A stretch of DNA of 6,567 nucleotides, from IMG/VR virus record IMGVR_UViG_2671180444_000011; one strand, 5' to 3'. Position numbers and translations under genes: made by a program. The notes below the pieces were generated by a model. The model was not told the origin of the DNA. It saw only the letters and a list, made by a program, of their open reading frames with translations, and made no database searches. Within the stretch, counting starts at the first letter, position 1; each line of letters opens with the position of its first letter. Positions 3,691 to 3,935 of the stretch are shown here, in pieces. This DNA is from a virus (lineage: Duplodnaviria > Heunggongvirae > Uroviricota > Caudoviricetes).

Positions 3691-3790
3691 TGGAGCACCT
3701 CAAAAACACCATCATACACTAAATCAGTAAGTTGGCAGCATCACCAAAATTGGTTATGCTGTTAAGAGTGGTTACTTCGTCACACAGCTT

Positions 3791-3824
3791 AAACCCGCCG
3801 TCGAGCGGGTTTTTCCATTTTTTG
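3791..3824 (+). terminator. Intrinsic terminator upstream of the lysis genes, positioned like lambdoid tR'
   Basis: AAACCCGC-CGTCGA-GCGGGTTT stem-loop (8-bp stem) followed by TTCCATTTTTTG. Confidence 0.6.
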
Positions 3825-3935
3825 AGTCTCGATATTAGCTGATAACCCAATACCTGAGTTATTCACTGACTCCGAGTCTGTTACGTTTCGTAGTATTCCC
3901 TCAATTTACACCCGCTTTGTCTGCGAGGTGGGGTT

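Follow-up and report, generated by a model that had tools for sequence, protein, structure and literature searches.

The window analysed here, a 6,567-bp stretch of a tailed-phage genome (Caudoviricetes; IMG/VR record IMGVR_UViG_2671180444_000011), consists mostly of stacked insertion sequences (IS), after which comes a phage lysis cassette. The outer end of an IS1 element in this window most probably lies inside the late promoter of the cassette, where the -10 hexamer, the transcription start, the leader and the terminator have been kept, and the -35 hexamer and a palindromic candidate site for the antiterminator Q have been removed; the probability of this explanation as a whole is estimated at about 0.75. 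Positions 3746-3822 would thus constitute the downstream half of a late transcription unit, in which a compact promoter of the sigma-70 type is followed by ~50 nt of leader and by an intrinsic terminator, and which would be the functional equivalent of pR'-qut-tR' of lambda or phage 21. IS1 transposed into the A/T-rich spacer of this promoter and duplicated AAAATTGG, so that at least 768 bp came to separate the -35 and the palindrome from the rest; both have since been lost from the window through further IS-mediated rearrangement. With TTGGCA of the IS1 end at the optimal distance of 17 bp, RNA polymerase would probably start at A3767, and transcripts with neither an adjacent Q-binding site nor Q would end at the hairpin, at about +46 to +52. 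The net effect would be an intact set of S-R-Rz/Rz1 genes uncoupled from Q and kept off.

The allele without the insertion is represented by the DLP12 locus of Escherichia coli K-12 (L002), to which homology begins at 3746, placing the break at 3745/3746. Over positions 3746-3960 (215 bp), the window and the essD-upstream DNA of both DLP12 and phage 434B are 100% identical. The breakpoint corresponds to L002 4500/4501, 190 bp upstream of the holin ATG, and falls inside the promoter spacer, between -22 and -21. The original prediction, made from the letters of the window, had placed the IS1 end at 3745 and the start of the hairpin at 3791, with a gap of about 45 bp; both positions are exact by sequence and by scanner (3746-3790, 45 bases), and all of the DNA 5' of 3745, i.e., positions 1-3745, is indeed IS DNA. 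Its central claim, that IS1 severs the cassette from its native late control, holds as well: Q, the -35 and the palindrome are absent from the window. The further claim that most or all of the native pR'/qut region is gone applies to Q, the -35 and the palindrome, and not to the native -10, start, leader and terminator, which remain; the complete native promoter does not lie downstream of 3745. Of the proposed alignments with phage 21, phage 82 and DLP12, that with the identical DLP12 flank locates the breakpoint, at -22/-21 inside the promoter; the phage 21 region could not be aligned.

The mode of insertion is recorded in related NCBI assemblies, eight of which (L014-L021) encode the identical endolysin. 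The exact sequence of this protein is named 'lysozyme [Shigella sonnei]' and 'MULTISPECIES [Shigella]' in the sources, and the host context appears to be Shigella. The junction between GGCAGCATCACC and AAAATTGG is common to all eight assemblies. In six of them (L014-L017, L019, and L020), ...ACGTAAAAAATTGG stands before the other IS1 end; the presence of ...GGTTTACGTACGTAAAAAATTGG at this opposite end marks a simple transposition with an 8-bp duplication of AAAATTGG. The element has both terminal inverted repeats, the insA and insB domains and, as seen in these six assemblies, the 8-bp target duplication of IS1. The six simple-insertion assemblies still have Q and the porin gene upstream. The window, which is 99.93% identical to one related assembly over 3746-6480, is a later, rearranged state that followed the simple insertion, since an IS21-family element interrupts its IS1, whose far end adjoins other IS DNA; a second rearrangement removed Q, the porin gene and the palindrome. 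In comparison with L014 4800-4850, the IS1 far end at window 2109-2140 adjoins a frameshifted IS3-family element instead of the left half of the promoter. A deletion starting beside Q was considered and rejected, because intact relatives carry the porin gene just upstream of the promoter and Q about 1.7 kb further, and because six assemblies show a simple transposition.

The same IS1 junction is found in one further viral locus with a QuuD-type Q. As one contiguous piece, it is absent from 5,426 complete E. coli genomes, and the exact junction has no match in the species-representative genome set. Among the complete E. coli genomes, four have matches to the flank upstream of essD and to an IS1 end as two pieces spanning ~200-550 bp, in an arrangement unlike that of the window, which hints at independent IS1 insertions in the same intergenic region.

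The DNA that IS1 interrupts belongs to a conserved unit. In K-12, 434B, mEp332, ev243, and PA-2, Q (quuD) comes first, then an opposite-strand porin gene (nmpC/lc), which a 570-bp intergenic region separates from the holin; the porin gene lies just upstream of the promoter, and Q ~1.7 kb further up. A 55-bp core (3760-3814) recurs in Shiga toxin (Stx) phages of the Stx1 and Stx2 types, SfII, SfIV, phiP27 and cdtI, always just before forward-strand late genes; in the Stx2d phage 112808, the Q stop precedes it by 38 bp. Alignment of these modules reveals a weak -35-like hexamer, a spacer palindrome that varies among phages, a TA...T hexamer, a nearly invariant block, and a G+C-rich hairpin followed by a T-run. 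In the phage records examined, the unit points at holin, stx or other late genes.

A wider survey covered 240 IMG/VR loci (L022-L261) with three subtypes of PF06530 Q genes. The leader core is located downstream of Q in 224 of them, and in ten of the 16 loci lacking it, the sequence beyond Q is shorter than 1.3 kb. Where the core is present, it lies -1 to 39 bp from the Q stop (34 loci) or 0.86-3.8 kb away (all others), from which it follows that variable cargo sits between Q and the unit, and that the unit stays with the late genes. These distances suggest a preferred slot for cargo insertion upstream of pR' rather than downstream of tR'. The cargo ranges from none to 3.8 kb, and reverse-strand cargo genes are seen in the phage records examined. 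In the window, the holin start codon is 169 nt downstream of the start site at 3767.

Intact QuuD-type promoters carry a 14-bp palindrome, TTTACGTACGTAAA, at about -34 to -21. It is found in 74 of the 75 loci with a QuuD-type Q, the exception being the locus that has the IS1 junction of the window. Loci with a WGPS2-type Q carry GCGTACGC instead (75 of 75), and those with a Q112808-type Q carry GCGGTCCGC (72 of 74, plus two single-base variants); overall, the palindrome matches the Q subtype in 221 of 224 loci. The -10 hexamers and their neighbouring bases vary within a subtype, and identical leaders occur with different Q subtypes. The coupling is therefore specifically between Q and palindrome, as the -10s, flanks, and leaders are shuffled between Q types. 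Each intact locus contains the palindrome once, and the window lacks it. Its position and subtype specificity make it a candidate Q-binding element (QBE), which most likely binds the cognate QuuD-type Q. In the literature, the QBE is located between -35 and -10, a pair of direct repeats is described as the site of Q21, and 82Q probably binds as a dimer.

A broader proposal, put forward tentatively and judged rather improbable as a whole, is that Q proteins of the PF06530 family use a modular late promoter. A palindrome at about -31 to -24 (ACGTACGT, GCGTACGC or GCGGTCCGC) would serve as the subtype address, the leader and terminator would be shared and exchangeable, and cargo would accumulate between Q and the promoter. 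In a Shigella lineage across which the insertion appears to be shared, IS1 would have removed the address and kept a constitutive start, giving a pathoadaptive lock-off of an intact cassette under selection, possibly with a leader RNA of ~50 nt.

In intact relatives, the promoter reads GGTTTACGTACGTAAAAAATTGGTTATGCT, with a weak -35 (TTTACG), the palindrome and the -10 TATGCT. Both the aligned phage modules and nearly all spacer variants of the viral loci have a TA...T hexamer at this fixed position. The native pair TTTACG-16 bp-TATGCT matches the consensus at 8 of 12 positions (4/6 for the -35 alone) and was not flagged by the scanner; the hybrid pair TTGGCA-17 bp-TATGCT matches at 9 of 12 (5/6 for the -35 alone). 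The hexamers at 3732-3737 and 3755-3760 and their 17-bp spacing had been predicted exactly, as the scanner confirms. The idea of a hybrid promoter drawn from them survives in its geometry, which is that of documented IS1 hybrid promoters: an outward -35 inside the inverted repeat (3723-3745) and a resident -10 at 17 bp, within the range of 16-18 bp. It has to be amended in one respect: TATGCT is no chance hexamer of the phage flank, being the promoter's own -10. Promoter-like sites number three against 2.1 +/- 1.6 expected from shuffles of the 1.9 kb scanned, and a bare -35/-10 pair is hence not beyond chance; the pair gains its weight because TATGCT is the native -10 of a conserved promoter, a K-12 start is mapped 7 nt downstream, and an outward -35 of IS1 is documented.

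This K-12 start is listed in the Cappable-seq table of Ettwiller et al. 2016 (PMC4782308, supplementary file 1), on the + strand at U00096.2 576452, equivalent to L002 4522 and window 3767, an A located 7 nt after TATGCT. The mapping has indirect support from two mapped starts, each at an A that follows a -10-like hexamer by 7 nt. The conversion of 576452 uses the essD ATG, which is presumably at 576621 in U00096.2, consistent with the 777-bp offset seen for quuD. The K-12 table lists no + strand start between the quuD stop and IS5, and there is thus no sign in K-12 of a late promoter directly beside Q. The start-site supplement for S. flexneri M90T yielded false string matches only.

According to PMC8764528, the IS1 inverted repeat carries an outward -35, and hybrid promoters form when it is spaced correctly from a -10. 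Prentki et al. 1986, on IS1 hybrid promoters, is listed in PMC9330008. The hybrid promoter would fit this documented behaviour, and initiation at 3767 is plausible. It could even be somewhat stronger than at the native promoter, unless InsA on the IS1 end interferes. IS1 also cuts off from the cassette a stronger K-12 start further upstream (L002 4151) and the published essDp; with the candidate Q site gone and Q absent from the window, the lysis genes are predicted to be silent.

The leader block GTTAAGAGTGGTTACTTCGYCACACAGCTT is presumed to be the pause and Q-loading region; the first ~25 transcribed bases are nearly invariant among 71 unique leaders. The hairpin that follows has 8 pairs (5 of them G-C) and a 6-nt loop, and spans +25 to +46 from the mapped start. 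The original view of it as a tR'-like element is borne out, since it is the first predicted terminator after the late promoter, in the layout of pR'-tR' of phage 21. The scanner found five terminators in the window region against 1.3 +/- 1.1 expected, and one in the K-12 intergenic region against 0.3 expected, both above chance, and the centroid RNA fold gives -12 kcal/mol. As a feature, the terminator is conserved among the viral loci, in which its stem occurs in at least two unrelated sequences; the median end of the T-run is +49. A role of the hairpin as a porin or bidirectional terminator was rejected, as the T-tract is present on the + strand only and the porin gene starts, rather than ends, on this side. 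The 3'-end supplements of Adams et al. 2021, in files that may be incomplete, have no entry near essD in either coordinate system. A full-text literature search with strings of the leader sequence found no paper.

Rfam returned nothing at the gathering score; Trp_leader reached 28.8 against a threshold of 41 and isrK 15 against 50 bits. The Trp_leader match is most likely due to a generic terminator. The weak sub-threshold match at window 3738-3815 to isrK, a short RNA from the Salmonella prophage Gifsy-1 with a link to an antiterminator circuit, is probably not meaningful. An inverted repeat, TTAAG...CTTAA (3762-3766 and 3788-3792), brackets the start site and the first 26 nt, and a compensatory pair, ATAAG...CTTAT, occurs in ten unique leader sequences, all of one clade. 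An RNA helix formed by GTTAAG...CTTAA in the leader was rejected, its 5' arm being upstream of the mapped start and the single compensatory change being limited to one clade.

Several observations weigh against the interruption of a Q-dependent promoter at this position. The K-12 start at 576452 is weak (score 1.7), comes from a single dataset, and is placed through an essD coordinate that is itself assumed; a transcript of ~50 nt could, however, be under-sampled. No clear -10-like pause element is recognisable in the leader, where the candidates (TG-n-TTACTT at +3 to +11, or TACTTC) are poor, and the leader fold is not significantly more stable than that of shuffled sequence (z = -1.43). Linkage, and not function, could account for part of the association of palindrome and Q subtype. 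InsA from other IS1 copies binds IS1 ends and could block the hybrid -35. Finally, a much stronger K-12 start (score 90 at L002 4151, U00096.2 576081) overlaps the region of the nmpC start codon and points to essD, and the lysis promoter of DLP12 has been published ~355 bp further upstream, the primers designated '-121 to +650' implying a +1 near L002 4167.

The alternative that survives best, although doubtful, is that TTGGCA-17-TATGCT is inactive in the cell, the lysis genes being silent because nothing initiates upstream and not because of termination. The frequency of such promoter matches, no greater than chance (three vs 2.1 +/- 1.6), the weakness of the native promoter itself (score 1.7), and the possible occlusion of the -35 by InsA are in line with it; moreover, of three IS1 insertions of the same orientation examined in PMC8764528, just one is reported to have increased transcription downstream. 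On the other side, the -10 and the start context are identical to those of the allele with a mapped start, the IS1 hexamer is closer to the -35 consensus (5/6, at 17 bp) than the native one (4/6, at 16 bp), and the same source documents IS1 hybrid promoters built on the outward -35.

Markedly less probable is that the unit at 3755-3822 is not the Q-dependent late promoter at all. The true one would be the upstream essDp near the nmpC start, which is reported to depend on RpoE and Q, and TATGCT would mark a minor constitutive start before an attenuator; the cassette would be parted from its promoter by IS1 even so, but the -10 taken up by the hybrid would be of no importance. The '-121 to +650' primers, which map to L002 4046 to ~4816 with a +1 near 4167, argue for this, as do the Cappable-seq scores (90 at L002 4151 vs 1.7 at the unit); the start at L002 4151 lies 16 nt from the +1 implied by the published fragment. 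Q, RpoE, and Hha are cited in PMC7918800 as regulators of the operon. Nevertheless, the unit follows a PF06530 Q in 224 of 240 loci, and in 34 of these it lies within 40 bp of the Q stop, where upstream DNA cannot intervene. Within the 9-kb K-12 locus, the palindrome of the Q subtype is located at the unit only. RNA initiated at the upstream start would also run into the terminator at 3791-3812, 395 nt downstream of L002 4151, without a promoter-proximal loading site nearby.

The consensus of the cyclic AMP receptor protein (CRP) is GTG-N8-CAC. That the block at +1 to +21 is a CRP site regulating the divergent porin gene, and not a Q-loading and pause region, is very improbable: it is annotated as such in the 1986 GenBank record J02580 of PA-2 (L008 1730-1750, window 3767-3787, AGTGGTTACTTCGTCACACAG), but that annotation looks sequence-based, the half-sites are GTG-N10-CAC with CCACA as the right half in most phages, and the block is nearly invariant in phages without the porin gene (Stx2d 112808, SfII, cdtI, and phiP27).

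Features of the late transcription unit, the lysis cassette and the insertion sequences in the 6,567-bp window
Feature	Position	Strand	Basis or remark
TTGGCA, outward-facing -35-like hexamer in the IS1 left inverted repeat	3732-3737	+	Scanner; takes the place of native TTTACG
AAAATTGG, right-hand copy of the 8-bp IS1 target duplication	3746-3753		Native promoter -21 to -14
TATGCT, native -10 of the late promoter	3755-3760	+	17 bp from TTGGCA; TA...T hexamer at fixed position in relatives
Transcription start, expected	3767	+	Mapped in the uninterrupted K-12 allele by Cappable-seq
Leader block GTTAAGAGTGGTTACTTCGYCACACAGCTT, nearly invariant	3761-3790	+	Alignments; column conservation over 71 unique leaders
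Predicted intrinsic terminator, tR' equivalent	3791-3822	+	Hairpin 3791-3812, then T-rich tail
Holin/antiholin, phage 21-type class II (EssD-like), intact	3936-4151	+	Pfam Phage_holin_2_1 (PF04971), E=2e-35
Signal-anchor-release (SAR) endolysin (RrrD-like), intact	4151-4648	+	PF00959 in L014-L021
Rz i-spanin	4645-5103	+	Pfam Phage_lysis (PF03245), E=1.9e-38
Rz1 o-spanin open reading frame (ORF), embedded in Rz	4859-5050	+	ORF list; layout as in phage 21
IS3-family transposase fragments	~276-2117		Pfam rve, HTH_21, HTH_Tnp_1
IS1 distal part (insB and right inverted repeat 2118-2140)	2118-2657	-
IS1 InsB	2132-2635	-	Pfam DDE_Tnp_IS1, E=5.9e-78
IS21-family element inside IS1	2658-3514	-	Pfam IstB_IS21, E=4e-38
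IS1 proximal part (5' portion of insA and left inverted repeat 3723-3745)	3515-3745	-
IS1 InsA	3487-3690	-	Pfam Zn_ribbon_InsA, E=1e-21

The left inverted repeat of IS1 reads as the reverse complement, with its outer end at 3745. The IS21-family element inside IS1 carries an IstB domain and the N-terminus of istA, is flanked by a 4-bp duplication (ATAT at 2654-2657 and 3515-3518), and has terminal repeats that read TGTCAACGCC and GGCGCTGACA. A run of N at 3054-3276 replaces most of its interior, and the element is far shorter here than a full member of the IS21 family. The window presumably begins with an IS911-type end (1-77) and closes with what we take to be an IS2 end (6481-6567). The lysis cassette is of the phage 21 type, its order being the same as in phage 21 and phage 434, and is followed by a KilA-N gene.

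The proposed arrangement is a combination of known mechanisms, i.e., IS1 hybrid promoters and IS-mediated inactivation of prophage functions. At base-pair resolution, the junction shows how one IS1 transposition may disconnect intact lysis genes from their antiterminator. In prophages of the DLP12 type, the late promoter is likely to lie 169 nt upstream of the holin, and neither beside Q nor at the upstream site implied by the published fragment coordinates. Candidate DNA sites are proposed for three Q subtypes, including the Q genes of Stx phages, in which control of the late promoter governs toxin output. Current understanding is not overturned by these findings, of which the promoter location, the cargo between Q and pR', and the palindromes rest on sequence evidence.

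Among characterized late promoters, that of phage 21 (OL657228) offers a close counterpart in organization: a sigma-70 promoter after a PF06530 Q, the QBE in the spacer, and tR' ~50 nt after the start, all within ~90 bp and then followed by S-R-Rz/Rz1. The -35 of phage 21 pR' starts 7 bp after Q, whereas a reverse-strand porin gene intervenes in the DLP12 type. The sequences of phage 21 cannot be aligned with the unit, and QuuD is distant from Q21 (E=7.6e-07). The Q21 site is a direct repeat (TGAGCA twice), whereas the unit described here has a palindrome; likewise, a sigma-dependent pause element is annotated in phage 21, whereas the candidate here is poor. In phage 82, 82Q probably binds as a dimer and the QBE and pause element lie within -31 to +30, with which a palindrome at -31 to -24 would agree. 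The leader is, however, unlike that of phage 82 pR', in which a -10-like element (+9 to +14), GCC (+15 to +17) and an AT-rich stretch (+18 to +25) follow the start. Identity with the phage 82 promoter was accordingly not established, as the features of Bird et al. do not fit and the names in the QuuD cluster do not include phage 82.

The IS1 end shares an outward -35, joined to a resident -10 at consensus spacing, with the hybrid promoters of Prentki 1986 and of afaA in E. coli ST131 (PMC8764528). Those documented cases were recognized by the switching on of a downstream gene; here, IS1 replaces a regulated -35 and site, and the terminator begins 25 nt after the start, so that silencing or a short leader RNA is predicted instead. 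The DLP12 lysis module (essD-rrrD-rzpD/rzoD) is a cassette of the same type with 215 identical base pairs upstream. Downstream of Rz, the prophage in the window differs from DLP12 by its KilA-N genes and, in relatives, a full-length terminase. A functional DLP12 lysis module is reported to be detrimental to Shigella virulence (PMC7918800, citing Leuzzi et al. 2017), and its loss has been proposed to be pathoadaptive in Shigella (same source, citing Rueggeberg 2013, 2015; Leuzzi 2017). The predicted silence of the lysis genes in the present case would fit with this virulence report. In the Shigella literature so cited, the locus is lost, whereas here the genes are intact and would be silenced by an IS1 located inside their promoter.

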